A stretch of DNA of 64,000 nt from a virus, in the IMG/VR virus record IMGVR_UViG_3300045988_154761, positions 96,001 through 160,000 of that record. One strand, written 5' to 3'. This document shows positions 253 through 35,743 of the stretch, in pieces. Within the stretch, counting starts at the first letter, position 1, and each line of letters starts with the position of its first letter. The notes under the pieces were generated by a model, which saw only the letters and a list, made by a program, of their open reading frames with translations, was not told where the DNA came from and ran no database searches. The position numbers and the translations under genes are program-made.

Positions 253-287
253 GATAATTTTCCTTTCTTATCTTAATAAAGGTGTTG

Positions 288-465: not shown

Positions 466-488
466 TCAGACTTAAATTTAAACAAAAG

Positions 489-610: not shown

Positions 611-623
611 GATTGCTCATTAT

Positions 624-1540: not shown

Positions 1541-1561
1541 TAAAAATAAAAAGGTGTTTTT

Positions 1562-2563: not shown

Positions 2564-2577
2564 AAATATGGTAAGAT
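2549..2577 (+). promoter_or_regulatory. sigma70/sigmaA-like promoter
   Basis: TTGACA 2549-2554, 17 nt spacer, TGG-TAAGAT 2569-2577. Confidence 0.5.
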
Positions 2578-2661
2578 AAATACATCTTAAGAGAAGAGAA
2601 AAATAAAAATTTCTTAAAAATATAACAAGCAAAAAAGCAAAAAGAAAATTTTAATAAATGG

Positions 2662-2690
2662 TTGACATCTTAAAGATGATATGCTATAAT
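2662..2690 (+). promoter_or_regulatory. sigma70/sigmaA-like promoter driving E2 and tRNA-Glu
   Basis: TTGACA 2662-2667, 17 nt, TGC-TATAAT (2685-2690). Confidence 0.7.
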
Positions 2691-2722
2691 AAGTGCATAA
2701 ATAAAACCTCCTGAATAATAAA

Positions 2723-2840
2723 GTAGACTCTTACAGCAAATTCTTAAAAAGGTTAACACAATTGTCTTGAAAACAATCATTAGCGAGTTCGATTCTCGTC
2801 AGAGGGCGCTCTGTGGTGAATAATACGCAAAAGAGTCTAG
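2723..2840 (+). ncRNA. ACAGCAA closing-helix element, copy E2 (tRNA-mimic core)
   Basis: TAGACTCTT (2724-2732) pairs with AAGAGTCTA (2831-2839); ACAGCAA 2733-2739; core has anticodon-arm-like ATTGT-CTTGAAA-ACAAT, T arm GCGAG-TTCGATT-CTCGT and capped hairpin CAGAG-GGCG-CTCTG. Confidence 0.65.
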
Positions 2841-2852
2841 GCTAATTAATTT

Positions 2853-2928
2853 GGTCGGTTAGTCAAGTGGGCTAAGACACTGGCCTTTCACGTCAGTAGC
2901 ACGGGTTCGAACCCCGTACCGACTACCA
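2853..2928 (+). tRNA. tRNA-Glu(TTC)
   Basis: acceptor GGTCGGT/ACCGACT, loop CTTTCAC, T arm ACGGG-TTCGAAC-CCCGT, CCA. Confidence 0.85.
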
Positions 2929-3102
2929 TTATTCAAATCAGAAATCCATTCTTATGATAGTGAGAGTAAGTTTTATCGGATTTAAATGAGGGGAACTTAA
3001 ATCTATCGAAGGGTTAAGAAATAATTGTTTGACGAAAAGTTGTTTCTCCTTTCTCTCTATCTGAGATGAATAATTTCCTTTCTGTAAGATGATATTTATA
3101 AA

Positions 3103-3236
3103 GTAGAGACTAACAGCAATTTTGAAAATATGTTAAAAAGCCAAACTCCCATTCTTCGGTTCGAATCCGAACGTCTTCAGTTGAAGTATGTAGCCAAGTG
3201 GTTTAAGGCAGGAGTCCATAACAACAATGTCTCTAG
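3103..3236 (+). ncRNA. ACAGCAA closing-helix element, copy E3 (tRNA-mimic core)
   Basis: TAGAGAC (3104-3110) pairs with GTCTCTA (3229-3235); ACAGCAA 3113-3119; core T arm TTCGG-TTCGAAT-CCGAA and D-arm-like GCC-AAGTGGTTTAA-GGC. Confidence 0.6.
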
Positions 3237-3243
3237 TATTTAT

Positions 3244-3386
3244 GCTCGTGTAACTCAGTTGGCAGAGTAGCGGCCTTGATGGAGTAGTATAAGAAATATG
3301 TCCTGTAAAGGAAGATGTGAGTTCAAATCTCATTTTCATCACAATTAAGCCGTTTGTCGAGAGTTCGAATCTCTCCACGGGCACCA
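3244..3386 (+). tRNA. tRNA gene with a 67 nt insertion in the anticodon loop (identity unresolved; Lys, Thr or other)
   Basis: acceptor GCTCGTG/CACGGGC, D arm ACTC-AGTTGGCA-GAGT, anticodon stem GCGGC (3270-3274)/GCCGT (3349-3353) separated by 74 nt, T arm GAGAG-TTCGAAT-CTCTC, CCA. Confidence 0.6.
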
Positions 3387-3421
3387 ATAGCAGAAATGCT
3401 TATTTTGTAATGACTTCAATA

Positions 3422-3486
3422 GTAGATGCTTACAGCAATTTTAATTGTACTTATCTGTTAAATAAGAATACACAAAAAGCGTCTAT
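3422..3486 (+). ncRNA. ACAGCAA closing-helix element, copy E4 (short form)
   Basis: TAGATGCTT (3423-3431) pairs with AAGCGTCTA (3477-3485, one G:U); ACAGCAA 3432-3438; lies in the leader of the endonuclease gene. Confidence 0.6.
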
Positions 3487-3508
3487 CCCCTTTCTAAATG
3501 GAGGAATT

Positions 3509-3916
3509 ATGTAGATAGAAAATAATCGAGATAGAGGTAGAGCAGGATTAAGTTTAGCTATTGCTTATTTTGGTAGCAATGGTTATACTGTTAATCTTCC
3601 TATTAATGATACTCAATGGTATGATTTAGTAATTGAAAAAGATGGTAAATTTGAAACTGTTTAGTGTAAATTCACGGGAAGTAAAGAGAATGAAGTTAAC
3701 TTGACTTCTTGTGGTGGCACAAATGGTTCAAGATATGATTCAGTTTTAAATCATCCTTTAGATTGGTTATTTTGTGCGGATAAAGATAAAAATCTTTATC
3801 TGATTCCGATGGAAGATTTAAGAAAAGCTGGAAATACAAAAGCTATTTCTTTAAGAAAAGCTCCCAATTCTAATAAGCAAGGTTTTAATACTTATACTTA
3901 TTTGGTAGAAATTTAA
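3509..3916 (+). CDS. PD-(D/E)XK endonuclease of the group I intron-associated / homing type; 2 in-frame TAG
   Basis: ATG after GGAGGAA; TAG at codon 2 and at 3662-3664; motifs YDLVIEKDG and V-TAG-CK match the D...(E/Q)xK core. Confidence 0.7.
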
Positions 3917-3918
3917 AT

Positions 3919-4003
3919 GGGTGAGTAGTGAATCGGCAAACACGACAGACTGTAAATTTGTTTCCTAACGGAGTAGAAGGGTCGGCACCTTCCTCACCCA
4001 CCA
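3919..4003 (+). tRNA. tRNA-Tyr(GTA)
   Basis: acceptor GGGTGAG/CTCACCC, loop CTGTAAA, long variable arm, CCA; atypical T loop GTCGGCA. Confidence 0.75.
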
Positions 4004-4026
4004 ATAAAATTTTTGTTTTAAAACTC

Positions 4027-4055
4027 TTGACAAAATGAAAATCTTATGCTATAGT
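4027..4055 (+). promoter_or_regulatory. sigma70/sigmaA-like promoter driving E5, E6 and tRNA-Leu
   Basis: TTGACA 4027-4032, 17 nt, TGC-TATAGT (4050-4055). Confidence 0.7.
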
Positions 4056-4132
4056 AAAAATATGATAAAGATACAAATTTATTTGTAAGCTAATTGTTCA
4101 TTTTTTATTGTTCATAAAAGCATTCCTTTCAG

Positions 4133-4263
4133 GTAGACTCTAACAGCAACTTTACAATCACAAATGCTATGGGTCTGTTTGTTGGAGGTTCGAATCCTTC
4201 ACTCCCGACCATCGGGAGTTAGCTCAACGGATAGAGCAATAGATTTTGTAAAAATGAGTCTAG
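4133..4263 (+). ncRNA. ACAGCAA closing-helix element, copy E5, enclosing a circularly permuted tRNA-like body
   Basis: TAGACTC (4134-4140) pairs with GAGTCTA (4256-4262); ACAGCAA 4143-4149; order is TCTGT, variable region, T arm GGAGG-TTCGAAT-CCTTC, ACTCCCG-A-CCA-T-CGGGAGT, D arm GCTC-AACGGATA-GAGC, ATAGA. Confidence 0.65.
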
Positions 4264-4324
4264 TCAATAAATTAATAAATTGACGCTCCTATTTTTCTAA
4301 TAGGCAAATATAAATTCCTTTCAA

Positions 4325-4442
4325 GTAGACACGTACAGCAAAATTACTTGATGCTTTAATATGGAAAATTAACGATAAGGTTCGACTCCTTAATCTTCTT
4401 TGGAAGATGCGTGGTTGCTGGAAATCAAAAAACGTGTCTAGG
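4325..4442 (+). ncRNA. ACAGCAA closing-helix element, copy E6 (tRNA-mimic core, related to E1)
   Basis: TAGACACGT (4326-4334) pairs with ACGTGTCTA (4432-4440); ACAGCAA 4335-4341; T arm TAAGG-TTCGACT-CCTTA and capped hairpin ATCTTC-TTTG-GAAGAT. Confidence 0.65.
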
Positions 4443-4457
4443 TTAAGTATTAATTAT

Positions 4458-4542
4458 GCAGGATTGGCGGAATTGGCAGACGCGACGGATTCAAGTCCCG
4501 TTTCCTAATGGAGTAAGAGTTCAAGTCTCTTATCCTGCACCA
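4458..4542 (+). tRNA. tRNA-Leu(CAA)
   Basis: acceptor GCAGGAT/ATCCTGC, loop TTCAAGT, long variable arm, T arm AGAG-TTCAAGT-CTCT, CCA; A31:C39 mismatch. Confidence 0.8.
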
Positions 4543-4991
4543 TAGTCTTGATGATAGACTAACAAAACATCATCCCCCAACGCCCGTCCGAAGTCTTGGA
4601 GTAGAGAACAAGTGAATGGTTCTCGAACGCAAAGTAAGCTGTCATAAGCTGAAAAAGGCTATAAGCCGCACATGGGTAGAACACAGATATATGGTGAGAG
4701 ATGTTAGGGTGCGAATGTAACATCAAAAGCCTACAGCGAAAAGCTATACGGAGAAGTCTGTGCCGTGTTTACGGGAATAGGTGGTTGCGTACCTATTCAA
4801 ACAAAAACTCTGATTACTGCAACTAAATCGGGGTAGGTATTGAGGTTATGGGTCATATAACCTTAAAACACAATAAGCCGAGCATACTGCTTATTGCTCC
4901 TAACGGGTGGTGCTGAGGATGAACAACAAAAGCCAAGTTATAGAGTTCTTGTAAAAAACTCTGTTGCTATTTGAAAGAATAGCTCAATTAT
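4543..4991 (+). ncRNA. unclassified ~450 nt GC-rich structured spacer (U1) between complete tRNAs
   Basis: no ORF; many hairpins (ATGTTA/TAACAT, ATAGGT/ACCTAT, GGTTAT/ATAACC, ATAAGC/GCTTAT, AGAGTT/AACTCT, GCTATT/AATAGC). Confidence 0.35.
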
Positions 4992-5067
4992 GGGCCTGTA
5001 ACTCAGTTGGGAGAGTGTCTGCTTTGCACGCAGGAAGTCGCAAGTTCAAGTCTTGTCAGGTCCACCA
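4992..5067 (+). tRNA. tRNA-Ala(TGC)
   Basis: acceptor GGGCCTG/CAGGTCC with G3:U70, loop TTTGCAC, T arm TTCAAGT, CCA. Confidence 0.85.
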
Positions 5068-5521
5068 TAAGAGTTAGTTGCTCTCTTAGAATAAAAAGCA
5101 CCGTATTAACACAAGTTTACGATAATTAACTGGCCCTCGTCTGCGGGTAAACAGCAGTTTTAGGCTACTATAAGCCGAAGTTTTAAGGGCAGTTTCTTTA
5201 AAAAACATGCATATGGTTTTTCTTGTTATCTCTTTTTTATCCTAAAAATAAGACGTAGCAGCATGACTTGAGGCTATACATCAAGCTCCTGAGACCGAAG
5301 AAAAAAAGCTTCCTGTATGTCAATGGGAAAATAATCTATCTGTTTCTTAATAACAGGTGGGAGGGAGTATTTTAGGTCGGCAAGACCATGAGAGGATAGC
5401 GCTGTTCTCTCAACCCTTTGCAAAGGTTGCTGATGGGTTTTCCAAACGGATGTGGAAATTAAATGAATGGAAGGGTATAATTCAGCCCAAAATCAGCTCT
5501 AAAATTCAAGAAAATATATTT
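5068..5521 (+). ncRNA. unclassified ~450 nt structured spacer (U2)
   Basis: only a spurious 65-aa ORF; three-way junction GCCCT/AGGGC enclosing CTGC-GGGTAAACA-GCAG and GGCT-ACTATA-AGCC near 5140-5205. Confidence 0.3.
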
Positions 5522-5599
5522 GGGTGTGTAGTTCAGTCTGGTCAGAACACTTGACTGTTAATCAAGGAGTCGAAGGTTCAAATCCTTCCATACCCGCCA
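5522..5599 (+). tRNA. tRNA-Asn(GTT)
   Basis: acceptor GGGTGTG/CATACCC, loop CTGTTAA, T arm GAAGG-TTCAAAT-CCTTC, G73, CCA. Confidence 0.85.
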
Positions 5600-5952
5600 A
5601 AAGTGGAGAGTGTAGGTTCGAGTCCTGCCCCGCTCGTGGGAAACCCTTGCAGGAAGCTGTTAGGTACAGCGCCACTTAGAATTTCTTTCACCTTATTACG
5701 CGAAATATGGGATTGAGATGTTGCTTTAGTCGGGTTCTTTTACAGCAGAAAATAAGAACGCACCTGTTTAATTGGGTTTTTCAGTTCAGTAAAAACAAGA
5801 AAAACCTCGGTTGTTTAGAAATTTTCTTCTGATATTGAATGAAAACAAATAGAGAATTCTCTCATTGCAATGCCGAAAGGTAGTAAGTTACGAATTTACC
5901 CATGATAAATTACGAACTTGCTACCGAGTAGGGATAAGAGAGAATTAAACAT
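5600..5952 (+). ncRNA. unclassified ~350 nt structured spacer (U3)
   Basis: ORF-free; AAGTGG (5601-5606)/CCACTT (5672-5677) closes a 77 nt module; 10 bp stem GTAGTAAGTT/AACTTGCTAC; CC-GAAA-GG tetraloop hairpin. Confidence 0.3.
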
Positions 5953-6028
5953 GCTTTGGTAGCTCAATTGGTAGAGCAGTGGACTGAAAATCCACGTGTA
6001 GCCAGTTCAATTCTGGCCTAAAGCACCA
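5953..6028 (+). tRNA. tRNA-Phe(GAA)
   Basis: acceptor GCTTTGG/CTAAAGC, D arm GCTC-AATTGGTA-GAGC, loop CTGAAAA, T arm GCCAG-TTCAATT-CTGGC, CCA. Confidence 0.9.
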
Positions 6029-6029
6029 T

Positions 6030-6113
6030 TGCTGGCGAGTGAAACGGATATATAAATCACGCTTGGCTCATACCCAAGTAATAGTGGGTTCGACTCCCAT
6101 GCTTCAGCAACCA
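6030..6113 (+). tRNA. tRNA with CAT anticodon (Met or Ile2 type), irregular acceptor and oversized D loop
   Basis: anticodon arm CTTGG-CTCATAC-CCAAG, D stem GTGA/TCAC with 14 nt loop, T arm GTGGG-TTCGACT-CCCAT, CCA; acceptor needs a bulge or a mismatch. Confidence 0.55.
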
Positions 6114-6137
6114 AAAAACAAAAGGAAGTAAATTCTA

Positions 6138-6443
6138 ATGACTGATTTTAAGACTTACATTTATTAGACAGCAAGTAATAAAAAGTTTGTTTATAGATGT
6201 CCTCATTGTAATAAAGGGATAATGCAAGTAGCAGAAATTAAAACTGTTAAAGATGAAACTAATATTTTATCTTGGAATTATACTTGTCCAGTTTGTAAGA
6301 AACAAATGGTTTCTATTGAAAAAGATGGTTGTTCTTCTTTTAAAAGTGTGTTCCCTCCAATGACTCAAATTAGTGATAAAGAATTTACTGATATTAAAAA
6401 GGATGTAGGAGAAAAAGGTATCTATCTGTTCTCTGAAATATAA
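6138..6443 (+). CDS. small zinc-ribbon protein (101 aa), 1 in-frame TAG
   Basis: ATG 6138 after AAAGGAAG; TAG at codon 10; CPHC...CPVC; the track ORF 6222-6443 is its 3' part. Confidence 0.6.
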
Positions 6444-6450
6444 AATAAAT

Positions 6451-6545
6451 GCTAGCGTACAGAAGTGGTCATAACTGCCATCACTTGAAATGATGTGTGA
6501 CGGCTTGTATCCGTCTCGTGAGTTCGAATCTTACCGCTAGTGCCA
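6451..6545 (+). tRNA. tRNA-Ser(TGA)
   Basis: acceptor GCTAGCG/CGCTAGT, anticodon arm CATCA-CTTGAAA-TGATG, long variable arm, T arm GTGAG-TTCGAAT-CTTAC, G73, CCA. Confidence 0.85.
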
Positions 6546-6565
6546 TTAAAAACGGAGTCTTTAAT

Positions 6566-6769
6566 ATGAAAATCTGGAATGGAAATGATTTTGAATATCT
6601 TGGTTATTTTGTAAAAAACAACAAGAAAGCTAAATATTTTGAGGTTTTTGACAAGAATGGCAATCTTCTTTTTAGACAAACTAATTGGGGTCATGCTTGT
6701 GTGACTTCAGTTAAACATAAGATTGAAGACTTTCATAAAAAATATAGACAGGAGATAAAAAATGAGTAA
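6566..6769 (+). CDS. hypothetical protein (67 aa)
   Basis: first ATG downstream of tRNA-Ser; the longer track ORF (6497) would overlap the tRNA. Confidence 0.6.
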   Translation: MKIWNGNDFEYLGYFVKNNKKAKYFEVFDKNGNLLFRQTNWGHACVTSVKHKIEDFHKKYRQEIKNE

Positions 6770-7277
6770 TAATAATTCAATCGAAATCGAACGTAAGTTT
6801 TTAATTTCTGGTTTTCCTAAAGTTGATTTTGACGAAGTTGGAATTGTTAAAACTATTTATATTAATATCAAATATAATTCTGATGGAAAAATTTTACAGG
6901 AAATTCGTATAAGACGTTGGTTTGAAAGTGGCAAAGGTTATCGTCCAGATACTCTTACTTTCAAATCTGGTGGTACTTTAACTCGCACTGAAATTGAAAC
7001 AAATCTTACAGATAATTCTTTGTTTGACTGTTTTAATGAACTTGGTTATAATCCTATTGTAAAAGATTATAGAGGTCTTTACAATAATGGTTATTTAATT
7101 GAATTCAATCTTGTAGATGGTGGAAGTGAGACTGCTTTCTATTATGCCGAAGTTGAATTCAATTCTGAGGAAGAAGCCAATAGTTTTGTTTGGCCTTTTC
7201 CTGAAGTATTTATTGAGGAAGTTACTAATAAGCCTGAATACAAAATGGCGAATTATTGGAAACGTACTCGTGGATAA
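6762..7277 (+). CDS. CYTH-domain (triphosphate tunnel metalloenzyme) protein
   Basis: N-terminal IEIERKFLI (ExExK signature) and YYAEVEF near the C-terminus. Confidence 0.75.
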   Translation: MSNNNSIEIERKFLISGFPKVDFDEVGIVKTIYINIKYNSDGKILQEIRIRRWFESGKGYRPDTLTFKSGGTLTRTEIETNLTDNSLFDCFNELGYNPIVKDYRGLYNNGYLIEFNLVDGGSETAFYYAEVEFNSEEEANSFVWPFPEVFIEEVTNKPEYKMANYWKRTRG

Positions 7278-7301
7278 GGACTATTATTTAGTCCTTTATT
7301 T
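7277..7301 (+). terminator. intrinsic terminator-like hairpin
   Basis: AGGACT/AGTCCT stem followed by TTTATTT. Confidence 0.5.
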
Positions 7302-7377
7302 GCTGGATTAGTTCAGTTGATAGAACGTATGATTTGTAATCATAATGTCAGGGGTTTGAGTCCCTTATCCAGCTCCA
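7302..7377 (+). tRNA. tRNA-Thr(TGT)
   Basis: acceptor GCTGGAT/ATCCAGC, anticodon arm TATGA-TTTGTAA-TCATA, T arm AGGGG-TTTGAGT-CCCTT, CCA. Confidence 0.85.
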
Positions 7378-7414
7378 TGAACTTTTTTATAAAATAAAAA
7401 AGAGGATTTTTATT

Positions 7415-7606
7415 ATGGACGAATTTTTAATCTCCGAAATCTTTGAGCTGATTAAAACTTTAAAGAAAGACAAGTATACCAAGTATACCATGAAAGATGT
7501 TAATACCATTTGCGATTTGCTTGGTATTGAATTATTTTGGTATCAAAAGTTTGTTCTTCTTCGTCAGCTTAATGATAAAAATTATATGAGGTATATATGC
7601 CGATAA
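7415..7606 (+). CDS. hypothetical protein (63 aa)
   Basis: ATG after AAAGAGGA; overlaps the next gene by 10 nt. Confidence 0.6.
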   Translation: MDEFLISEIFELIKTLKKDKYTKYTMKDVNTICDLLGIELFWYQKFVLLRQLNDKNYMRYICR

Positions 7607-7866
7607 GAAACGGAAACAATGATATTTATAGTGACATTTTCTTCCAATATTTGAATGAGAATGAAGAGAAGATGATTAATGAAACCGCTTCTAAGATGGA
7701 AGAACGAAATCCGATTCTTTATCCTAAAGATGTTTCAGTAGCAATTTTGAAATCCATCTATAGTGATTATAAGAAATATCTTTATGAGCACGGATATACT
7801 TTTAAGAAAGAATACTTAGAAGAATACTTTAAAAATTTATCAGAAGAAATTTTAAAAAGTACTTGA
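7597..7866 (+). CDS. hypothetical protein (89 aa)
   Basis: track ORF; its TGA stop lies inside the next promoter -35. Confidence 0.65.
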   Translation: MPIRNGNNDIYSDIFFQYLNENEEKMINETASKMEERNPILYPKDVSVAILKSIYSDYKKYLYEHGYTFKKEYLEEYFKNLSEEILKST

Positions 7867-7891
7867 CAAGATGATGAGTATGTGGTATACT
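7863..7891 (+). promoter_or_regulatory. sigma70/sigmaA-like promoter ahead of tRNA-Arg and tRNA-Gln
   Basis: TTGACA 7863-7868, 17 nt, TGG-TATACT (7886-7891). Confidence 0.7.
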
Positions 7892-7932
7892 TAAGATGTA
7901 GTTGAGATAAGAAATAAGTAAATCTTTGATAT

Positions 7933-8007
7933 GTGGACGTAGTTTAATGGCTAAAACGGTGGCCTCCGGTTCCGCAGATAGGGTTTCGATTACCCCCGTC
8001 CACTCCA
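7933..8007 (+). tRNA. tRNA-Arg(CCG)
   Basis: acceptor GTGGACG/CGTCCAC, loop CTCCGGT, T loop TTCGATT, CCA; one mismatch each in the anticodon and T stems. Confidence 0.7.
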
Positions 8008-8058
8008 GAAAAACAAATGTCTCTCTCTTGTAGACAGACAAGATTTCCTTTTTTGTGT

Positions 8059-8165
8059 ACTTCGTGGTGGTAACAGTACGATAAATAAAATAAGCCATGT
8101 CCTGTCGGACTCAGAAATGAGATGGATGTCCTCTGTGGAGAATCGGGATTCAGGGGCGAAGTACA
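8059..8165 (+). ncRNA. unclassified ~107 nt structured element between tRNA-Arg and tRNA-Gln
   Basis: 8 bp closing helix GTACTTCG (8059-8066)/CGAAGTAC (8158-8165); internal hairpins GTCC-TGTC-GGAC and CCAT...ATGG. Confidence 0.35.
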
Positions 8166-8172
8166 AAAATAT

Positions 8173-8246
8173 TGAGCATTAGAATAATGGTAGTTCATTA
8201 GGCTTTGACCCTAATGGTGGGGGTTCGAATCCCTCATGCTCAGCCA
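8173..8246 (+). tRNA. tRNA-Gln(TTG)
   Basis: acceptor TGAGCAT/ATGCTCA (U1:A72), anticodon arm TTAGG-CTTTGAC-CCTAA, G73, CCA. Confidence 0.85.
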
Positions 8247-8260
8247 ATTAAAGGAGATAT

Positions 8261-9232
8261 ATGGATATTTTAATTGATTAGTACACAAAAGAAGAGTTAT
8301 AGCAAATTTTAAATAATAGTTCTTCTTATTCTGACGCTTTAAGAAAATTAGGATATAATTCTACATCAAACGCTAATCGTCGGCATTTAAAGAGAATTAT
8401 AAAAGAAAAAAACTTAGAAGTTAATTTTCTTCCAAAGACATACATAAAGAAATTATCTGATGAAGAAATTTTCAAAGAAGATTCTCATGTTAGTTAGAGT
8501 TGTGTGCGAGAACATTTTTTAGCTTTAAATATAGTTGAGTATAAATGTTCTATATGTGGATAGGAACCGTTTTGGAATGGAAAACCTTTAACTTTAACAT
8601 TAGACCACATTAATGGTAAAAACCGAGATAACAGACTTGATAATTTAAGGTGGGTTTGTCCTAATTGCGATAGATAGCTTCCTATTTTTGGGCGGAAAAA
8701 TAAAACAGAGTTAAAAAAGAAGAAGTTAAAAAAATTTGATTTGGTAAAAAACAACAAACCAAAATCTTACAAAAAATATTTTAAAATTTACAAAGATAAC
8801 AAAAGATTTTGTTTGGGTTGTGGAAAAGAAATTACCAATAATTCTCTATATTGTTTTGATTGTGCTAATAAGCATAGAAGAAAACAAAAAGATAGACCAA
8901 CCAAAGAAGAGTTAGAAAAAATGTTAAAAGAAGAAAAGGGTAATTTTTCAAAAATAGCTAACCAATTTGGTATTTCTGATAATGCAGTTAGAAAATGGTG
9001 TAATAATTATGGTTTATCCTGTAAATCATCTGCTTATAAAGCACCAAAAAAAGAAAAACAACAACGAATTGAGAAACCTGTAAAGCAATTAGATTTAAAT
9101 GGTAATTTAATTAAAAGCTATTCTTCTATTAATCAAGCTTATGTTGAAACTAAAATAGAGCATATTTCTCAATGTGCGAACGGGTTAAGGAAAACAGCTC
9201 GGGGTTATAATTGGGAATTTGAAAAAGATTAA
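8261..9232 (+). CDS. HNH homing endonuclease with C-terminal HTH/NUMOD-like modules; 5 in-frame TAG
   Basis: ATG after AAGGAGA; frame checked end to end (TAG only); LDHINGKNRDNRLDNLRWVCPNCDR-TAG-LP; the track ORF 8741-9232 is its 3' part. Confidence 0.8.
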
Positions 9233-9251
9233 AAATTTTTTAACAATTAAC

Positions 9252-9373
9252 GTAGACGCTTACAGCAAACAATAATAAAATCAAATTCTATTAAAAAAGA
9301 TTTAGGGTATTGTTCCTTGCTAATTAGTTTATGATGCTTTCATGATTCTCCTTTGTTAGTATTATGCGTCTAG
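9252..9373 (+). ncRNA. ACAGCAA closing-helix element, copy E7
   Basis: TAGACGC (9253-9259) pairs with GCGTCTA (9366-9372); ACAGCAA 9262-9268; no T arm in the core. Confidence 0.55.
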
Positions 9374-9380
9374 TTTATAA

Positions 9381-9447
9381 GTGCCGTACCAAGGTTGGAG
9401 TCACTCGACGGAGGGCTTAAGAAGGGGTTCGAATCCCCCACGGTGCA
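9381..9447 (+). ncRNA. tRNA-like fragment (acceptor-like stem plus T arm, no foldable D or anticodon arms, no CCA)
   Basis: GTGCCGT/ACGGTGC stem and GGGG-TTCGAAT-CCCC; the middle 36 nt do not fold as a cloverleaf. Confidence 0.3.
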
Positions 9448-9503
9448 AGATTGAATTGTTTGGAGTACTACAAACAAGATGGTAAGTTATTGATGATTTA
9501 AAA

Positions 9504-9568
9504 GTAAACCCTTACAGCAATTTAACTATTTAATTTTTGCTTGAAAAAAGATTAAGGATAGGGTTTAG
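9504..9568 (+). ncRNA. ACAGCAA closing-helix element, copy E8 (short form)
   Basis: TAAACCCT (9505-9512) pairs with AGGGTTTA (9560-9567); ACAGCAA 9514-9520. Confidence 0.55.
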
Positions 9569-9584
9569 TCCTGTAATGTTGAAA

Positions 9585-9671
9585 GTAGACACTAACAGCA
9601 ATTAAAATAAAAATACTGGGAAATATATTTAATTGGAATAAATACTTTTTTAGATTTTTAAAGTGTCTAGG
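9585..9671 (+). ncRNA. ACAGCAA closing-helix element, copy E9 (short form)
   Basis: TAGACAC (9586-9592) pairs with GTGTCTA (9663-9669); ACAGCAA 9595-9601. Confidence 0.6.
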
Positions 9672-9680
9672 ATTTTATAT

Positions 9681-9816
9681 GGGGATGTATCTCAATTGGT
9701 CAGAGGGCCCGACTTATGTTTTAGTAGTTTAAAAGTAAAACTTTTAATGCAAGTGCAAGACTTGTCTAAAACACCAAATCGGGAAGTTGAGTGTTCGAGC
9801 CACTCCATTCCCACCA
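9681..9816 (+). tRNA. tRNA gene with a 59 nt insertion in the anticodon loop (Ile-UAU if excised at 37/38)
   Basis: acceptor GGGGATG/CATTCCC, D arm TCTC-AATTGGTCA-GAGG, anticodon stem CCCGA (9708-9712)/TCGGG (9779-9783) separated by 66 nt starting CTTATG, T arm GAGTG-TTCGAGC-CACTC, CCA. Confidence 0.65.
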
Positions 9817-9837
9817 ACGGTAGCAAATTCAAATAAA

Positions 9838-9907
9838 GTAGACTCTTACAGCAATTACTTAGAGACTTGTGATTTGGGATTACATATGTTTTGAAAAATG
9901 AGTCTAG
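9838..9907 (+). ncRNA. ACAGCAA closing-helix element, copy E10 (short form)
   Basis: TAGACTC (9839-9845) pairs with GAGTCTA (9900-9906); ACAGCAA 9848-9854. Confidence 0.6.
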
Positions 9908-9915
9908 CTTTATTA

Positions 9916-9992
9916 GCGCCTGTAGTCTAATTGGATAAAACCGCACTCTTCTAAAGTGTATCTTATGAGTTCGAATCTCGTCAGGCGTGCCA
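9916..9992 (+). tRNA. tRNA-Arg(TCT)
   Basis: acceptor GCGCCTG/CAGGCGT, anticodon arm GCACT-CTTCTAA-AGTGT, T arm ATGAG-TTCGAAT-CTCGT, CCA. Confidence 0.8.
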
Positions 9993-10018
9993 ATGAAGTT
10001 TCAAACTTCATTTAATTT
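9993..10018 (+). terminator. intrinsic terminator-like hairpin
   Basis: ATGAAGTT-TCA-AACTTCAT followed by a T-rich tract. Confidence 0.55.
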
Positions 10019-10022
10019 ATTA

Positions 10023-10333
10023 TTGCGGAGTAGTGTAACGGTTAGCACAGCGGTCTTGAATTAGGGACTCCTATTTGGAAACGAATAGGTAATAAAGAGG
10101 GCTAAAACGGTTGACATCTTATTATTAAGTTAGTAAGACTATCCCGTGCTAAATCAGTTCAAAAAACTGTAAATGTGTAGAGAGCATAGACTCTCCACCT
10201 AAACCGAAAGGCAAGGTGATAATGTGCTCCAGACTACAACGATTTTTATCGGCTATGGTGACATAGAGTAGCAAGCTAAAACCGTACCATTCTGAGTGGG
10301 TTAGATTGAGTTCGAATCTCAACTCCGCTGCCA
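10023..10333 (+). tRNA. split tRNA gene interrupted by a 220 nt group I-like intron; predicted spliced anticodon CTA (amber suppressor), alternative TGA
   Basis: 5' part TGCGGAG-TA-GTGT-AACGGTTA-GCAC-A-GCGGT-CT (10023-10055); 3' part CTAAA-ACCGT, 20 nt variable region, TTGAG-TTCGAAT-CTCAA-CTCCGCT-G-CCA (10276-10333). Confidence 0.55.
10056..10275 (+). ncRNA. group I-like intron candidate inside the split tRNA
   Basis: 5' exon ends in U, intron ends in G; P1 GGTCT (10051-10055) with GGACT (10064-10068) including the U:G pair; P10 TTAG (10060-10063) with CTAA (10276-10279); P2 CCTATT/AATAGG; R-like TCCAGACTACAA (10228-10239); GAAA-capped hairpin; the P3/P7 core was not resolved. Confidence 0.45.
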
Positions 10334-10438
10334 ATTTAAAAGTAAAGGGAACATTGGAGTAATTAACCAATGAGATAATGATACCTTCGCTGTCAAGCTT
10401 TACTTTTTTTAAATAAATCTGTGAAGGAGATTTTGTTT

Positions 10439-11410
10439 ATGCAAGGAAGTATTTATATTATTCATAATTCAATAAACGATAAAAAGTATATTGGATAGAC
10501 TTCAAGAACAGTTGAAATTCGTTGGAAAGAGCATTTACAAGAAGCTCAAAATTTAGATTGCCATTATGCAATTTATAATGCTATAAGAAAATATGGGGTT
10601 GAAAATTTTTGGGTAGAAGAAATAGAAAAATGTGAAACGAAAGATTTAGATGAAAGAGAAAAATATTGGATAAAATATTATAATTCTTTTAAAAAAGGTT
10701 ATAATTCAACTCTTCGGGGAACCACAAATTTCAATTGTTTTTATAATAAATTAACTTTTGAAAATTCAAACTGTGTTTTTGATTCAATAGAGAATTTTTC
10801 AAGAATATATAGTTAGTATCATAATATATCATTGAGTCAAGTAAAAGACAAAATATTAAGAGCAATAAATAATGATAAAACTTTTTATGGTAAAAAGCCT
10901 GTAATTTTAAATTGGGATGTAGATGTATCTTCAGATAAAGACAAAGAAAAATTTGTTAAATAGTTTGAAGATATATATTAGAATAAAAGTGTAAGATGTA
11001 TTGAACTTAAAAAAAATTTTAATACTGTTGGGCAAGCGGCAAAGTATTTTGTTGAAAAAGAAATATATACTGGAAAATCTAGTAATCCTCTTCAAGCTGT
11101 TACAGTTTTAATTACTAAATCAATAAAAGACAATAAAGCTTGTAAATCTTTGAATAATTATCACTTTAAATATACATAGAAAAATAAAAAGATATTAAAC
11201 AAATCCTCTTTAAATCCTTATCAAAAAGTTCCAGTAAAATGTAATGAATTGAATTTAGTTTTTAATTCATAGGTTGAAGCTGCTTAGTATATGATAGATA
11301 ACAAATTGTGGGATGTTAGTTTAAAAACTGCACGATTAAGAATAACTGACTTAGTAAATAATAAGATAGAAAAATATAAAGGTTATTCTTTTTGTAAAAT
11401 ACAAACTTAA
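10439..11410 (+). CDS. GIY-YIG homing endonuclease with repeated NUMOD/IENR-like DNA-binding modules; 7 in-frame TAG
   Basis: ATG after GAAGGAGA; all 323 codons checked, TAG is the only interruption; GSIYIIHNSINDKKYIG-TAG-TSRTVEIRWKEH, KYWIKYYNS. Confidence 0.85.
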
Positions 11411-22872: not shown

Positions 22873-23343
22873 ATGGTTGATATTAAGTGGCTTTAGACTC
22901 AAGAAGGATAGAAAGCTTATTAGACTTGGATAAGAAAGTTAGCAAATCGAGCAGAAGATAGAACAGATATTCCAATTTTAGTAGACACCAATGGAGAAAT
23001 TTAGGTTTGGGTAACAATAAATAAAAAATATCTATCTAAAGAGCAATTTGAAAAACTTTCTGACAAATCTGATGGTGAAATTACTACAAAATTAGAATTT
23101 AAAACAAAAGATATTATTATAAGAGAGCTTACTTCTATTGCAAAAAGTAGAGATGCTTTAGCGGATAATGAAGATGAAAGAGAACTTTTATGTCCCCTCG
23201 TTTCATTGTTTCAGGGAATAGAAGATGCTATTACTAATGATATTTGCTATAAAGCTCAAAATGCTAAACAGCTTTTTATAAACAATTTCGAAAAAAATTT
23301 AGGAAAAGACGAAAATAATTCTAATAACCTCTTGACAAACTAA
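22873..23343 (+). CDS. hypothetical protein (156 aa), 4 in-frame TAG
   Basis: frame checked line by line; TAG at codons 8, 13, 17 and 44; TAA stop at 23341-23343. Confidence 0.55.
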
Positions 23344-23360
23344 GATACATCTGTTATAGT
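23332..23360 (+). promoter_or_regulatory. sigma70/sigmaA-like promoter
   Basis: TTGACA 23332-23337, 17 nt, TGT-TATAGT (23355-23360). Confidence 0.7.
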
Positions 23361-23378: not shown

Positions 23379-23440
23379 TTAGACTCTCACAGCAAACTAC
23401 AAAAAACTTTTATTTTGAAAAAAGGACAAAAAGAGTCTAG
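23379..23440 (+). ncRNA. ACAGCAA closing-helix element, copy E11, in the 5' leader of the vWA protein gene
   Basis: TAGACTCT (23380-23387) pairs with AGAGTCTA (23432-23439); ACAGCAA 23389-23395. Confidence 0.6.
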
Positions 23441-23462
23441 TCCTTTAGAAAAGGAGAAAATT

Positions 23463-25181
23463 ATGTATAACTACAACAATCCTAACAAGAAGAATAACAC
23501 TAAGGCTTGGGCTCCTAAGCCTGAAAAGCCTGTTACTAAGTCCAACCGAGTTAGCCGTAAGGCTTCTTTCATGGACAAGGTTGAGAATACTGCTAAGGGT
23601 TACTACACTCAGATTGCAGTTCCTTCTCTTCCTGCTGATAAGCAGTACACTTCTAACGGTGCTATTGCATACAAGTCCTCTGGTTCTGCTCTTCTTGACA
23701 TCAACACTTCCATCTCTGCTCTTCGTAGCCTGCCCGATGGTGATATTGTGAAGAAGTTCCGTGCAGCTTATTGTGAGAATCCTCGTCTCGCTATTCGTTG
23801 GCTGTTCTATGCTGGCGATATCCGTGAGGGTCAGGGTGAGCGCCGTCTCTTCCAGATTTGCCTTAAGGATATGATGAACAATGGTGGTGCTCAGATTGTG
23901 GCGAACCTGATTCCTATGATTCCTGAGTATTCTCGTTGGGATTATATCTATGTTGTCATGGATAATCCTACTACTAAGCCTGTTGTTCGTGAACTGATTC
24001 GTAAGCAGTGGAAGGAAGATATGGCTAATATGAAGAAGGGCAAGTCCATTAGCCTTATGGCGAAGTGGCTTGATAGTGCTTCTTCTCACAGCCATGATAC
24101 TCGTAAGCGTGGTCTTAAGACTATGGATATGCTCGGTCTGACTGAGCGTGAGTATCGCAAGGGTCTGTCTGCTCTTCGTAAGCACCTTGACGTTGTTGAG
24201 CGTAAGATGTCTTCTCAGAATTGGCAGAGCATTGATTATGAGACTGTTCCCTCTAAGGCAAACCTTAATTACAATAAGGCTTTCCTTCGTAATGATGAGG
24301 AGCGCCGTCGTGCCTATCTGAACGCTCTTACTAAGGGCGAGGCAAAGATTAATTCTTCTGTATCTAATCCTTGTGACATTGTTCACAAGTATTGCGAGAA
24401 TGATTGGGGTACTTCTCCTCATTCTTATGATGCCGCCCTTGAAGGCATGTGGAAGGCTCTTCCCAATCTTGTAACCGATGATAGTTCCACTATTGTTGTT
24501 GCCGATGGCTCTGGTTCTATGTGCGCTACTGTTGGTCGTACTCGTATGACTGCTCTTGAGGTTGCTAACTCTCTTGCAATTTACTTTGCAGAGCGTGCTA
24601 AGGGTGCATATAAGGGTCGTTACATTACTTTCTCTGCACGTCCTCAGATGGTTAATGTTAATCATGACTCTTTGCGTGCAAATCTTAGGGAAGCTGCTCG
24701 TCATAGTGAGATTGCTAATACCAACCTTGAAGCAGTATTTGACCTGATTCTTGATACTGCAATTAAGAATCATTCTCCTCAGAGTGATTTGCCAAAGAAT
24801 ATTCTGATTATCAGTGATGGTGGTTGGGATTCTATGGTAAATATTCGTACTCTTAATACTGGCAGTGGTTATGGTTATTGGGGCTATAACAGCACTCGTG
24901 CTACTGCTAAGGAAGCTCCTGCTTTCCTTAAGTCCATTGAGCAGAAGTACAAGAACGCTGGATATGAGATGAGCAAAATTTGTTATTGGAATGTTTGCGG
25001 AAACGGTACTACTGGTAACGGTCTTCCCATGACTAAGAATGATTATGGTATCATGGTCAGCGGGTTTAGTATCCAAACTTTGAAAATGATTCTCAGCGGC
25101 AAGACTAATCCTTGGGATGCACTTATGGAAGTGGTTTTGGATAAGCGTTACGACAAGATTGAAGAGCTAGCTTTTAAGTAA
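23463..25181 (+). CDS. DUF2828-like protein: helical N-terminal region plus C-terminal vWA domain with MIDAS
   Basis: ATG 23463 after AAGGAGA; NGAIAYKSSGSALLD, RLAIRWLFYAGDIREGQGERRLF, VVADGSGSM (DxSxS). Confidence 0.7.
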   Translation: MYNYNNPNKKNNTKAWAPKPEKPVTKSNRVSRKASFMDKVENTAKGYYTQIAVPSLPADKQYTSNGAIAYKSSGSALLDINTSISALRSLPDGDIVKKFRAAYCENPRLAIRWLFYAGDIREGQGERRLFQICLKDMMNNGGAQIVANLIPMIPEYSRWDYIYVVMDNPTTKPVVRELIRKQWKEDMANMKKGKSISLMAKWLDSASSHSHDTRKRGLKTMDMLGLTEREYRKGLSALRKHLDVVERKMSSQNWQSIDYETVPSKANLNYNKAFLRNDEERRRAYLNALTKGEAKINSSVSNPCDIVHKYCENDWGTSPHSYDAALEGMWKALPNLVTDDSSTIVVADGSGSMCATVGRTRMTALEVANSLAIYFAERAKGAYKGRYITFSARPQMVNVNHDSLRANLREAARHSEIANTNLEAVFDLILDTAIKNHSPQSDLPKNILIISDGGWDSMVNIRTLNTGSGYGYWGYNSTRATAKEAPAFLKSIEQKYKNAGYEMSKICYWNVCGNGTTGNGLPMTKNDYGIMVSGFSIQTLKMILSGKTNPWDALMEVVLDKRYDKIEELAFK

Positions 25182-25196
25182 GTTTTAAATATGAAA

Positions 25197-25230
25197 GGGG
25201 AAGAGAATTATTCTCTTCTCCTTTTTATTT
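25197..25230 (+). terminator. intrinsic terminator
   Basis: GAAGAG/CTCTTC stem followed by CTTTTTATTT. Confidence 0.6.
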
Positions 25231-25244
25231 ATAAAGGAGATATA

Positions 25245-26477
25245 ATGTCTTAGTATATTAGTTAGGTTTCATCTTTAATGGAACAATGGGATTTTGATAA
25301 AAATACTGTTTAGCCTAATGAAATAACAACAGGAGCGCATCAAAAAGTATTTTGGAAATGTCCTGTTTGCAAAGGTAAATGGAGTAATATTCCCCATACA
25401 GCAGGAAAAAATAGTTGCCCATATTGTAATAAAAGAAAAGTTTTAAAAGGTTTTAATGATTTAAAAACTAAAAATCCAGAATTACTTTGTGATTGGGATT
25501 ATTCTTTAAATCAAATTTTACCAGAAGAAGTTACTTTTTATTCAAATAAGAAAGTTTTTTGGAGATGTCACAAATGCGGATATTCATGGGAAGCAACTAT
25601 TAATAGTAGGACAAGACTTCATGCAGGATGCCCAAATTGTGCAAAAGGACATAAAACGAGTTTTCCCGAACAAGCAATATTTTTTTATTTAAGTAAACAT
25701 TTCTTTTGTATTAACAATTATAAATATGATAATACAAAAAAAGAAATAGATATATATATTCCATCTTTGCGTATCGGAATAGAATATAATGGAAGTTATT
25801 ATCATTCAAAATCTTAGACTAAGGATGAGAAAAAGAAAAAAGATTTGCAAAATTTAGATATTTAGTTAATTACAATAAAAAATAGCAAAGAGGACAAAAA
25901 CAACAACAATCTTATAGAACATAAATTAAATGATTCTTCTTTAGAATGGGCCATAAAACAACTTTTAAAAAATTTATATCTGGAAGATAATATTTCTTTA
26001 AACAAAGATTATCAAGATATTTTAAAATAGTATAAACAAAAAGAATATCAAAATTCTTTGGGAGAATTATATCCAAATTTATTAGAAGAATGGGATTATG
26101 ATAAAAATGTTTTAAATCCTTTATTAATATCTCCAAATTCTAACAAAAAAGCTTGGTGGAAATGTAAAAAATGCGGACGCAGTTGGCAAGCTGCTATTAA
26201 TAGTAGAACCCCTCCTCGTAGTAATGGTTGTAAAAAATGCGTGGGAGTTTATGAAAAAGCTGTTCTTTGTTTAGAAAACAGAAAAATTTATATCGGACTT
26301 AACAAACTTTGTAAAAAGTTAAACGTTTCAAGTGGAGCAATAACAACTTGCATAAAAAGAAGTAAAAACAAAATCGGACATTGTAAAGGATATCATTGGA
26401 AAATATATATTTTACATAAAGAGAAAAATTTTTCTTGGCCTTTCTCTGATGAGTTAACTTACGAAAGAGAGGGGTAA
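25245..26477 (+). CDS. homing-endonuclease-like protein: repeated treble-clef zinc ribbons flanking a nuclease-like core; 6 in-frame TAG
   Basis: ATG after AAGGAGA; frame checked; three W(D/E)xDKN...W.C..C...W......R.....C..C modules; EIDIYIPSLRIGIEYNGSYYH core; the track ORF 26058-26477 is its 3' part. Confidence 0.65.
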
Positions 26478-26493
26478 TTCCCTCTCTTTTTTT
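26466..26493 (+). terminator. intrinsic terminator overlapping the stop codon
   Basis: AGAGAGGG/CCCTCTCT followed by TTTTTTT. Confidence 0.65.
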
Positions 26494-26504
26494 GTTGTTT
26501 TCTA

Positions 26505-26533
26505 TTGACAAGCAAGAAAAATTGTGTTATCCT
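26505..26533 (+). promoter_or_regulatory. sigma70/sigmaA-like promoter
   Basis: TTGACA 26505-26510, 17 nt, TGT-TATCCT. Confidence 0.55.
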
Positions 26534-26575
26534 TTATATACAATCATAAGCATATTAAGTGAAAGGTGTATTATT

Positions 26576-26818
26576 ATGGGCTATTTTCGTAATTTAACTA
26601 ATGCAGAACTTTGGTCGGCTTGTTCAGAGCTAAAAGAGATTGAAAAAAAGAATCCTCCAAAAAACAAAGAGAATTGGCCTATTAAGTACGGAAGCTATTT
26701 TTCTAAGGCAGTAGATTATTATGACCATTTCGTATCTATGCCAGTTACAGTAGCAGTAAGCGAACTTAAATTTGAGGTAGAAAGACGAGGTATTATTAAT
26801 GACTGTAAAAGAGTATAA
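26576..26818 (+). CDS. hypothetical protein (80 aa)
   Basis: ATG 26576 after GAAAGGTG; the track start 26492 precedes the promoter. Confidence 0.6.
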   Translation: MGYFRNLTNAELWSACSELKEIEKKNPPKNKENWPIKYGSYFSKAVDYYDHFVSMPVTVAVSELKFEVERRGIINDCKRV

Positions 26819-35206: not shown

Positions 35207-35743
35207 ATGTTTACTAAACAGGAATATCTTGAAGAATATAAAAACAATAATAAAAAAGCCAACATTACTAAACTTTTTGGCTATATTGAGGAACGTCTTG
35301 ACCATAATTCCAGTTTAGGCTGTAACGTGGCTTGTTTTGAAAATTTCCAGCTCAGTCCGACTTTATGGAAAATTCTAACCAATGATAAACAATTTAAAGT
35401 GATTTGTAAATGTAGAGGATACGACCTTGCTTTTCAGAAGAATGAAGATGGTTCTTGGGTTGATATTACCAGCGCCAAAGCAAAAGAAAACGCAGAAATT
35501 TGGAATCAGCTTTTTAAAGATAATGATGTAAGTTATTTCTTTAATGTTATTATGGGGCGTCTTTTTGCTGTTGGTCGTAAAAAGAACATCAAACATCCTT
35601 ATTATACTATTCATAAAGATTGCTGTAGTTCTATTGTTTGGGAATTGGCAAACAATAAAACTTTTCTTGAAAAGATTGTTGAAAATGGATGGGACTTTGA
35701 TTGTGGTCCTGATTCTATTCCTTATATTCAAATTAAGGGATAA
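35207..35743 (+). CDS. hypothetical protein (178 aa)
   Basis: ATG after AAGGAGAG. Confidence 0.7.
   Translation: MFTKQEYLEEYKNNNKKANITKLFGYIEERLDHNSSLGCNVACFENFQLSPTLWKILTNDKQFKVICKCRGYDLAFQKNEDGSWVDITSAKAKENAEIWNQLFKDNDVSYFFNVIMGRLFAVGRKKNIKHPYYTIHKDCCSSIVWELANNKTFLEKIVENGWDFDCGPDSIPYIQIKG

Follow-up and report, generated by a model that had tools for sequence, protein, structure and literature searches.

A divergent Ro60-like protein of the DUF2828 family and the ACAGCAA RNA module, its probable Y-like partner, in a virus genome

Ro60, Y RNAs and the locus compared with them

Particles made of Ro60 and Y RNA are conserved from bacteria to humans, and their function is still debated. We analysed here 64,000 nucleotides of a virus (IMG/VR record IMGVR_UViG_3300045988_154761, positions 96,001 to 160,000; this whole stretch is hereafter the window), in which RNA elements carrying the word ACAGCAA are scattered over a tRNA island (1-10,400) and occur once more in the leader of a gene for a 572-aa protein. 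The original prediction, drawn from the letters alone, had likened this layout to that of Ro60/Rsr and its Y RNAs. By its content the window looks like a section of a large phage genome. The nearest public record to it is a 123-kb contig of a human-gut "uncultured Clostridium sp." metagenome-assembled genome (MAG), also present in IMG/VR.

Ro60 binds Y RNAs and also misfolded RNAs. In the canonical systems it contacts mainly a motif on the 5' strand of the Y RNA stem (PMC4201824, PMC12135203), which is GNCGAA(N)G in bacteria and GGUCCGA in animals (PMC4201824). The Ro60 of the Thermus phage phiLo binds two Y-like RNAs, Yrl1 and Yrl2, encoded directly upstream of its gene (PMC12135203). As for the DUF2828 family, its members in cluster L mycobacteriophages are annotated "Ro-like RNA binding protein", and the database annotations of relatives read either so or "RNA-binding protein"; DUF2828 proteins are also mentioned in plant papers. 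One member, CKA15_055 of Listeria phage CKA15, has an HHpred match to Rsr and was detected in purified virions, and abundant non-coding RNAs encoded nearby were speculated to be Y RNAs (PMC12282133). In the literature searched, the Ro-like nature of the family is thus already known at the level of annotation and the idea of nearby Y RNAs has been raised for a single Listeria phage; no RNA partner of the DUF2828/PHROG 850 family is described there, and neither Rfam 15 nor this literature holds a description of the ACAGCAA module, of its covariation, of its cargo of tRNA parts or of its coupling to DUF2828.

The locus resembles these systems in several respects. In both, RNA genes adjoin the protein gene on the same strand, and the RNA ends pair into a terminal stem with a conserved motif directly after it on the 5' strand. 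As modelled, the protein would have the same helical part and vWA domain with its MIDAS (metal-ion-dependent adhesion site) as the Ro60 of phiLo (9KOP) and the Rsr that binds YrlA (PMC4201824, RF02553). Some ACAGCAA inserts hold the permuted tRNA-like domain of YrlA (T arm, acceptor-like hairpin, D arm), and the gene lies, like that of Ro60, beside tRNA genes, to which RtcB and RNA-ligase genes are added in Listeria phage LMSP-25. On the other hand the copy number is high, 11 in the window and arrays of two to four upstream of the gene elsewhere, and many copies are only 50-70 nt long, with one anticodon-loop-like hairpin instead of a tRNA elbow. All in all, the ACAGCAA RNA class appears to be undescribed and points to a new branch of the Ro60/Y-RNA system. 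We consider it likely that the ACAGCAA element is the cognate Y-like partner RNA of the Ro60-like protein.

The RNA module, the protein and their linkage

The ACAGCAA elements are a conserved structured RNA family. Their module reads 5'-(G)UAGAC-NNN-N-ACAGCAA-(U-rich)-[variable insert]-(A-rich)-NNN-GUCUA-G-3', the NNN triplets varying among copies and being complementary within every copy. The RNA's 5' and 3' ends form a covarying closing helix of 8 bp (consensus 5'-W-A-G-R-C-R-C.../...G-Y-G-Y-C-U-W-G-3'), and the 5' strand of this helix is directly followed by a single-stranded, almost invariant (R)CAGCAA and then by a U-rich tract. In the window the word ACAGCAA occurs 22 times, against 8.3 +/- 3.1 expected; on the plus strand 14 occurrences fall in 1-10,000 and one more at 23389. 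The composite pattern TAGA-N5-ACAGCAA-N35-65-GTCTA has four matches, one of them at 23380-23439, against none in 100 shuffles. The elements with a complementary closing helix, all on the plus strand, are ten in the tRNA island and one in the leader (Table 1); folded alone, each of the eleven has the closing helix in its minimum-free-energy (MFE) structure and ACAGCAA unpaired. No other convincing copy was found elsewhere in the window, so that the leader copy is indeed the sole one outside the island, as had been noticed. Two minus-strand matches of the covariance model (35579-35636 and 47469-47523) are weak, carry ACAGCAA without the helix consensus and lie inside plus-strand open reading frames (ORFs); we rejected them as chance matches.

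Over 47 non-redundant short elements aligned in register (alignment A2), the seven core closing-helix pairs are ~99% paired, a figure partly set by construction because the elements were chosen for the exact word and a complementary helix. Changes on both sides were found at all nine pairs tested, for example AAGACACU/AGUGUCUU, AAGGCGCA/UGCGCCUU and GAGAGACC/GGUCUCUC, or again UCGACCCU/AGGGUCGA and GGGGCGCG/UGCGCCCC, and the covariation score is 0.64, whereas shuffles give 0.21 and sliding of the partner gives no more than 0.18. The 108 distinct matches of the model-fitted set give the same picture of the helix and its covariation, with the consensus A-G-R-C-R-C / G-Y-G-Y-C-U; in them little or no variation is seen at CAGCAA and at the 3' terminal G. 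This behaviour bears on another view of the elements, in which their multiple copies and inverted ends (TAGAC...GTCTA) would be those of a miniature inverted-repeat transposable element. The arms, however, vary among copies while remaining complementary within each, which is covariation of the RNA type and not the signature of terminal inverted repeats; besides, the strand bias is absolute, the inserts are mutually unrelated, and target-site duplications were not seen in the flanks by eye. Such a mobile origin is scarcely credible.

No Rfam 15 family covers the closing-helix/ACAGCAA module, leader and island having been scanned. Like ROOL, GOLLD, drum, skipping-rope and similar RNAs, which may be small or large, the elements are structured RNAs interleaved with phage tRNA genes; they differ from all of these by the lack of an Rfam 15 match and by being defined through their link to one protein family.

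The inserts are of several kinds. Short copies, the leader included, hold a single hairpin and no tRNA-like domain; many of these hairpins have a stem of 4-5 bp and a 7-nt loop YU-NNN-R-N, the signature of an anticodon loop. Of 148 elements, 56 have such a hairpin, a number that includes some T loops; shuffles give 17 +/- 3.6. The recurrent loops are Lys-UUU, the commonest, Pro-UGG, Ser-UGA, Asn-GUU, Cys-GCA and Ser-GCU, and two loops of the window, CUGUUAA in the copy 3423-3485 and CUUGAAA in the copy 2724-2839, are identical to the anticodon loops of the phage's own tRNA-Asn and tRNA-Ser-UGA. Long copies carry T-arm-like hairpins, and some a tRNA-like domain (4134-4262 in the window, 7480-7610 in JoeDirt, about 10420-10550 in Mushroom; these two phages are presented below). 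In the copy 4134-4262 this permuted domain is complete and matches the YrlA model RF02553 at 4157-4255 with 40.6 bits, below the gathering score of 69 bits. The published YrlA of phage ET08 reached only 37.4 bits in a comparable scan, so the threshold is strict for phage members. The tRNA-like character of several elements, as in YrlA, had been anticipated and is borne out by this match.

The 572-aa protein is a clear member of the DUF2828/DUF7788 family (PF11443, 5.8e-32, 111.5 bits for a cut-off of 29; PF25043, 2.6e-32, 112.3 bits for a cut-off of 27.1) and of PHROG 850, "RNA-binding protein" (4.6e-116). It has a disordered N-terminus, a helical TROVE-like part (about aa 72-335) and a vWA domain (aa 343-547). 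Its MIDAS residues D348, S350, S352, T420 and D452 are invariant in 51 homologues, the set over which conservation and Pfam membership were assessed. The helical N-terminal region, the C-terminal vWA domain with DGSGS and the DUF2828 likeness of the original prediction all agree with these matches.

The fold comparison proposed with that prediction was made on an AlphaFold model. Searched with Foldseek, the PDB gave at E <= 1e-3 ten Ro60/TROVE chains and nothing else (8.9e-8 to 2.9e-5, probability 1.00), in full-length alignments of ~550-610 columns; the best is 9KOP, the phiLo Ro60, at 8.9e-8, and plain vWA domains enter the list only from E 1.6e-3. The overall fold of the model is a helical repeat ring capped by vWA, as in Ro60/TROVE, closure of the ring being only putative at the moderate quality of this model. 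At the profile level, hhalign aligned the family with the canonical Ro60 of ET08 around the MIDAS (90.5% probability, E 1.4e-6), positions 340-404 being collinear in both proteins, and 22 of the 51 family members match the Pfam model vWA_Ro60. The ORF would thus encode a divergent protein of the Ro60 type, with a TROVE-like helical ring part and a vWA/MIDAS part.

As a separate observation on this protein, residues 1-57 (23463-23633) form a Lys/Asn-rich N-terminus predicted to be disordered, in which the peptide K14-x-W16-A-P18-K-P20-E21 (KxWAPKPEK) is near-invariant in close and mid-distance homologues and may be a docking motif.

The genomic coupling of the RNA and the protein is strict, two-way and strand-specific. 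Starting from the protein, we sampled 80 viral loci encoding homologues with 44-97% identity to the window protein. In these loci the covariance model R1 found 160 matches at E <= 1e-3, every one on the gene strand (160/160); 97 lie within 500 nt upstream of the gene, and 146 fall between 2 kb upstream and 1.5 kb downstream of it. A match is present in 68 of the 80 loci. At most of the loci ACAGCAA stands directly 5' of the gene, often as two to four tandem copies, and the word counts in the protein-seeded loci and the window are 443 on the gene strand against 127 on the opposite strand. A further 32 model matches come from 62 bacterial or MAG loci, mostly of Clostridia, again without exception on the gene strand (32/32); in the viral and genomic loci together, most matches are no more than 500 nt from the gene. 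Starting from the RNA, a scan of IMG/VR with an RNA-only pattern provided 80 loci: the gene is present in 35, always on the same strand (35/35) and mostly at a distance below 100 nt. Of the 45 loci without it, 36 belong to tRNA arrays (on average 7.2 tRNAs per locus). These RNA-seeded loci repeat the two contexts of the window, gene-adjacent and tRNA island. The co-occurrence of the motif and the protein family, the other check that had been proposed, is therefore found in both search directions and on the same strand in all cases. The hypothesis thus withstood both of the refuting checks attached to it.

The tRNA islands nevertheless suggest another explanation: the elements could be used by some other factor of these islands, acting in processing, modification or repair, the DUF2828 gene being a mere neighbour. 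Most copies of the window, like the 36 gene-less loci just mentioned, are indeed among tRNA genes, and the gene abuts tRNA arrays in the phages LMSP-25, Mushroom and Tsamsa. But the short distance to the gene and the constant strand are difficult to understand for a bystander, 15 of the 35 gene-bearing RNA-seeded loci have no tRNA in the sequence scanned, and no other protein family is conserved beside the gene, the best neighbour cluster being present in 24 of 80 loci. Furthermore phage ET08 has tRNAs and a canonical Ro60 and lacks the element. We find this explanation improbable.

ET08, a mycobacteriophage, in fact serves as a control. Its gp220 is a canonical TROVE (4.7e-49) and vWA_Ro60 protein, accompanied by tRNAs and by canonical Y RNAs whose published sequences have GGCCGAG and GGCCGAAGG directly after the terminal stem. 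The model R2, trained on 42 elements of other phages with the window and its close relatives excluded, had no match at E <= 5 in the 50 kb of ET08 scanned. The ACAGCAA class thus accompanies the DUF2828-type Ro-like protein and not the canonical Ro60.

All five cultured phages tested carry elements beside the gene. In Listeria phage LMSP-25 three of them are directly upstream of a gene that follows a tRNA array and precedes RtcB, RNA ligase and phosphoesterase genes; in Bacillus phage Tsamsa two separate the tRNA array from the gene, and a consensus promoter immediately precedes the first. They are just downstream of the gene in the three others: four among tRNAs in Salmonella phage Mushroom (Felix O1-like), one with a YrlA-like insert, three in Staphylococcus phage SEP9, and three in mycobacteriophage JoeDirt, of which one is YrlA-like (39.8 bits) and has GCAGCAA for ACAGCAA. 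Over these phages of Firmicutes, Proteobacteria and Actinobacteria, the proteins are only ~30-55% identical, and CAGCAA, the compensated helix and the 3' G are kept. This retention does not fit decayed tRNA fragments, or transcript-processing or terminator signals without dedicated function, which the tRNA-like arms of the inserts and the interleaving with tRNA genes might evoke. The helix is not followed by a U tail, and the motif part has no counterpart in tRNAs; we regard such an origin as very improbable.

Two side observations concern these phages. For Mushroom (L082, 9540-13600) the annotation puts the tRNAs on the strand opposite to the Ro-like gene and ARAGORN and Rfam put them on the same strand, so the strand column of these tRNA rows appears unreliable. 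In LMSP-25 (L081) a ROOL match at 6422-6973 (88.5 bits, E 1e-16, just under the gathering score) is found some 1 kb 5' of the Ro-like gene, and a drum RNA at 3935-4033 (50.2 bits, over threshold) is in the same tRNA island; ROOL and drum thus co-occur with the ACAGCAA elements. LMSP-25 and CKA15 share 97.5% DNA identity over a segment of 1.56 kb, which covers the elements and stops where the gene starts. The ROOL of LMSP-25 maps to CKA15 26,236-26,727, which is the region of the unexplained most abundant transcript reported for that phage (PMC12282133). That region thus coincides with the ROOL match and not with the ACAGCAA elements; the three elements upstream of the LMSP-25 gene are identified here. 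We considered the CKA15 transcriptome as evidence that the elements are expressed and rejected it, the abundant region mapping to ROOL instead.

Several results weigh against our interpretation of the element as a Y-like partner RNA. On the protein side, the AlphaFold model is moderate (predicted local distance difference test 67, predicted template-modelling score 0.50), and the template-modelling scores to Ro60 are 0.44-0.52, or 0.34-0.52 over the ten best chains. Neither the window protein nor any of its 51 homologues matches Pfam TROVE (PF05731, the HEAT-like helical ring domain) at E <= 1, and sequence and profile searches against the PDB returned no Ro60 chain. The helical part is thus Ro60-like by fold and not by sequence, the sequence similarity to Ro60 being confined to the vWA part, and the relationship becomes visible only with the fold search and the vWA-level profile comparison. 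On the RNA side, the class has (R)CAGCAA after an AGRCRC helix, and not GNCGAA or GGUCCGA. As for the linkage, no model match was found in the sequence scanned for 12 of the 80 viral protein-seeded loci and for about two in three of the bacterial or MAG ones; the RNAs of these loci may be more divergent or located elsewhere. Many elements lie in tRNA islands far from the gene, so the linkage could in part reflect a shared tRNA-island context. Finally, the elements were collected by means of the exact word ACAGCAA and an obligatory complementary helix. Their apparent invariance and percentage of pairing are inflated by this choice, which does not account for the register, the compensatory changes or the slide control.

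Of the Ro60/Rsr-like ribonucleoprotein proposed originally, the fold, the vWA/MIDAS domain and the linkage therefore stand, and the TROVE sequence match and the canonical RNA motif do not. Lacking both of these, the system is a divergent sister of Ro60/Y RNA and not an ordinary pair of that kind.

The leader copy and the possible roles of the RNA

The leader copy lies, as had been described, between a near-consensus promoter and the start of the 572-aa ORF. With this promoter and a strong intrinsic terminator, the gene forms a transcription unit of its own, with the element in the 5' leader. The predicted transcription start (~23367) is 12 nt 5' of the element, which ends 22 nt 5' of the ATG. 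Its internal hairpin CAAAA-AACUUUUA-UUUUG has a Lys-like loop of 8 nt and is followed by an A-rich tract, and its MFE fold includes the closing helix. It is the best R2 match of the whole window (43 bits, E 1.8e-8); against Rfam at E <= 10 it gave only noise and no YrlA match.

This position raises the possibility that the leader copy is mainly a cis-acting autoregulatory site, at which bound protein would repress translation through the UCCUUU/AAAGGA hairpin that covers the Shine-Dalgarno. Apart from its place between the predicted transcription start and the Shine-Dalgarno, two observations go in this direction: when the closing helix is enforced, the Shine-Dalgarno is covered in the MFE structure by a hairpin of 6 bp that comes directly 3' of the helix, and many related phages have 20-60 nt between the end of their last element and the start codon. 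However, the Shine-Dalgarno is predicted to be paired (0.7-0.97) without the helix constraint and is paired with it also, so the computed ensembles give no evidence for a switch, and a sequestration switch is unsupported by the thermodynamic modelling; the unconstrained fold of the whole leader does not differ from shuffles (z -0.5). The leader being identical or nearly so in all close relatives, covariation cannot test the hairpin. Moreover the elements are downstream of the gene in SEP9, JoeDirt and Mushroom, and 10 of the 11 window copies are 13-23 kb away from it. The leader position is hence not a feature of the family, and cis-regulation cannot be the general role of the elements. As the main function of the leader copy autoregulation seems to us possible but rather doubtful; as an additional role of this one copy, it is compatible with the Y-like partner reading.

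A variant of the leader may be mentioned here. In one clade (L025, L031, L035, L064, around 9920-10000), the element closest to the gene on its 5' side is prolonged by an outer helix; the 5' flank of this element (CUCCA, UCUCCA or CCUCCA) is complementary both to its 3' flank (GGGA, GAGA or GAGG) and to the downstream Shine-Dalgarno UGGAGG. Judged from these letters, this could be an anti-Shine-Dalgarno arrangement.

If the element is, as we favour, a Y-like partner RNA, the protein would recognise the junction between the closing helix and ACAGCAA, by analogy with Ro60 and with phiLo Ro60: (R)CAGCAA sits at the position of the GNCGAA or GGUCCGA that Ro60 contacts in canonical Y RNAs. The variable insert would then project outward, be it an anticodon stem-loop mimic, a T arm or a whole YrlA-like tRNA elbow, and might, on the same analogy, tether or decoy tRNA-recognising enzymes during infection. 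Transcription of the gene would yield the leader copy in the 5' leader of its mRNA, by which the protein and one partner RNA would be made together; this RNA might later be excised, or might act within the mRNA as a site of binding.

One may go further and imagine the DUF2828 protein and its ACAGCAA RNAs as a modular display particle, in which a constant handle (closing helix and ACAGCAA) would present interchangeable tRNA parts, anticodon-loop mimics or elbows, either as a decoy or sponge for host nucleases of tRNA-targeting defences or as a recruiter of repair enzymes. We propose this only speculatively and hold it for rather unlikely. With CKA15_055 found in purified particles (PMC12282133), the protein could act from the first minute of infection, at least in some phages.

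A second, very large protein family is here linked to its own class of probable partner RNA. It counts at least 4,966 homologues at E <= 1e-5 among 8,000 candidates scored, with members in 695 cultured phage records, and DUF2828/DUF7788 relatives from giant viruses are among the fold matches. The RNA class combines a sharply defined recognition module with a swappable tRNA-like cargo, gives a handle on what phage tRNA islands contain besides tRNAs, and suggests that small mimics of anticodon loops take part in the contest with host defences directed at tRNAs. As members exist in tractable phages (Felix O1-like, P100/A511-like, cluster L mycobacteriophages, SEP9, Tsamsa), the hypothesis is directly testable, and the covariance model can be used to annotate hundreds of intergenic RNAs that are currently unannotated.

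Features of the window and further observations

Table 1. Coordinates of the ACAGCAA elements, of the Ro60-like gene and of its expression signals in the window.
Feature	Position	Strand	Remarks
Island copy	489-610	+	UUGACACU/AGUGUCAA helix, ACAGCAA; insert with T-arm-like GGUUCGACUCC
Island copy	2724-2839	+	Insert with AUUGU-CUUGAAA-ACAAU anticodon-loop mimic (Ser-UGA loop) and T-arm-like hairpin
Island copy	3104-3235	+	UAGAGAC/GUCUCUA helix; insert with T-arm-like CGGUUCGAAUCCG
Short island copy	3423-3485	+	Insert CUUAU-CUGUUAA-AUAAG, Asn-GUU anticodon-loop mimic
Island copy	4134-4262	+	YrlA-like tRNA-mimic insert (T arm, acceptor-like hairpin, D arm); fold z -4.8
Island copy	4326-4440	+	UAGACACGU/ACGUGUCUA helix; insert with T-arm-like hairpin
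Island copy	9253-9372	+	UAGACGC/GCGUCUA helix
Short island copy	9505-9567	+	UAAACCCU/AGGGUUUA helix
Island copy	9586-9669	+	In the training set of neither model; 36.1 bits, E 3e-7
Short island copy	9839-9906	+	Insert UGUGA-UUUGGGA-UUACA, Pro-UGG anticodon-loop mimic
Sigma-70-type promoter	23332-23360	+	TTGACA-17 nt-TATAGT, extended TG; 11 of 12 consensus matches
Leader copy of the ACAGCAA Y-like RNA module	23379-23440	+	Covariance model, MFE fold, composite pattern
Leader closing helix, 5' arm	23380-23387	+	UAGACUCU
Leader ACAGCAA word	23389-23395	+	
Leader internal hairpin	23400-23404 with 23413-23417	+	CAAAA/UUUUG; loop AACUUUUA, Lys-UUU-like
Leader closing helix, 3' arm	23432-23439	+	AGAGUCUA
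Leader conserved 3' G	23440	+	
Spacer	23441-23462	+	UCCUUU (23441-23446) can pair with AAAGGA (23450-23455), which overlaps the Shine-Dalgarno (computed from sequence only)
Shine-Dalgarno	23451-23456	+	AAGGAG; ATG at 23463
ORF of the 572-aa Ro60-like protein	23463-25181	+	DUF2828/DUF7788, PHROG 850 "RNA-binding protein"
MIDAS DGSGS	24504-24518	+	D348-G-S350-G-S352 (aa 348-352)
Intrinsic terminator	25193-25225	+	Strong; 15-bp stem, then T run

The genes found next to the Ro-like gene in related loci are lineage-specific: a radical SAM protein, a class V aminotransferase, an adenylosuccinate-synthetase-like (perhaps PurZ-like) protein and a Band 7/SPFH protein (L025 7759-8925; L030 8787-9704; L029 15637-16755). 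In the window, 20 ORFs were scanned with Pfam, a scan that is not exhaustive; most had no match, and no RNA-repair enzyme was among them.

Five ORFs of the window are open only if TAG is read as sense (8261-9232, 10421-11410, 22873-23343, 25191-26477 and 49025-51392), with three to seven in-frame TAGs each. Three of the five are homing-endonuclease-like (HNH with NUMOD1, GIY-YIG, three DUF4379 treble-clef fingers), and two flank the Ro-like gene, which has no in-frame TAG, like most other ORFs of the window. The tRNA island has 13 tRNAs called by ARAGORN, none with a CUA anticodon, and a few further tRNA-like matches found with Rfam.

Within this island, between tRNA-Leu and tRNA-Ala, the plus strand has a 449-nt ORF-free stretch (4543-4991) with a G+C content of 0.44, higher than that of its surroundings. 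It folds far better than shuffles (z -3.3, 0/100) and has no Rfam match, which makes it a candidate large structured RNA of the tRNA island; the fold of the neighbouring 5068-5521 is not significant (z -1.45). Three Rfam tRNA-like matches, all on the plus strand, are not called by ARAGORN (9681-9813, 3278-3341 and 6038-6100), and one of them is enlarged by some 60 nt inserted in its anticodon region.

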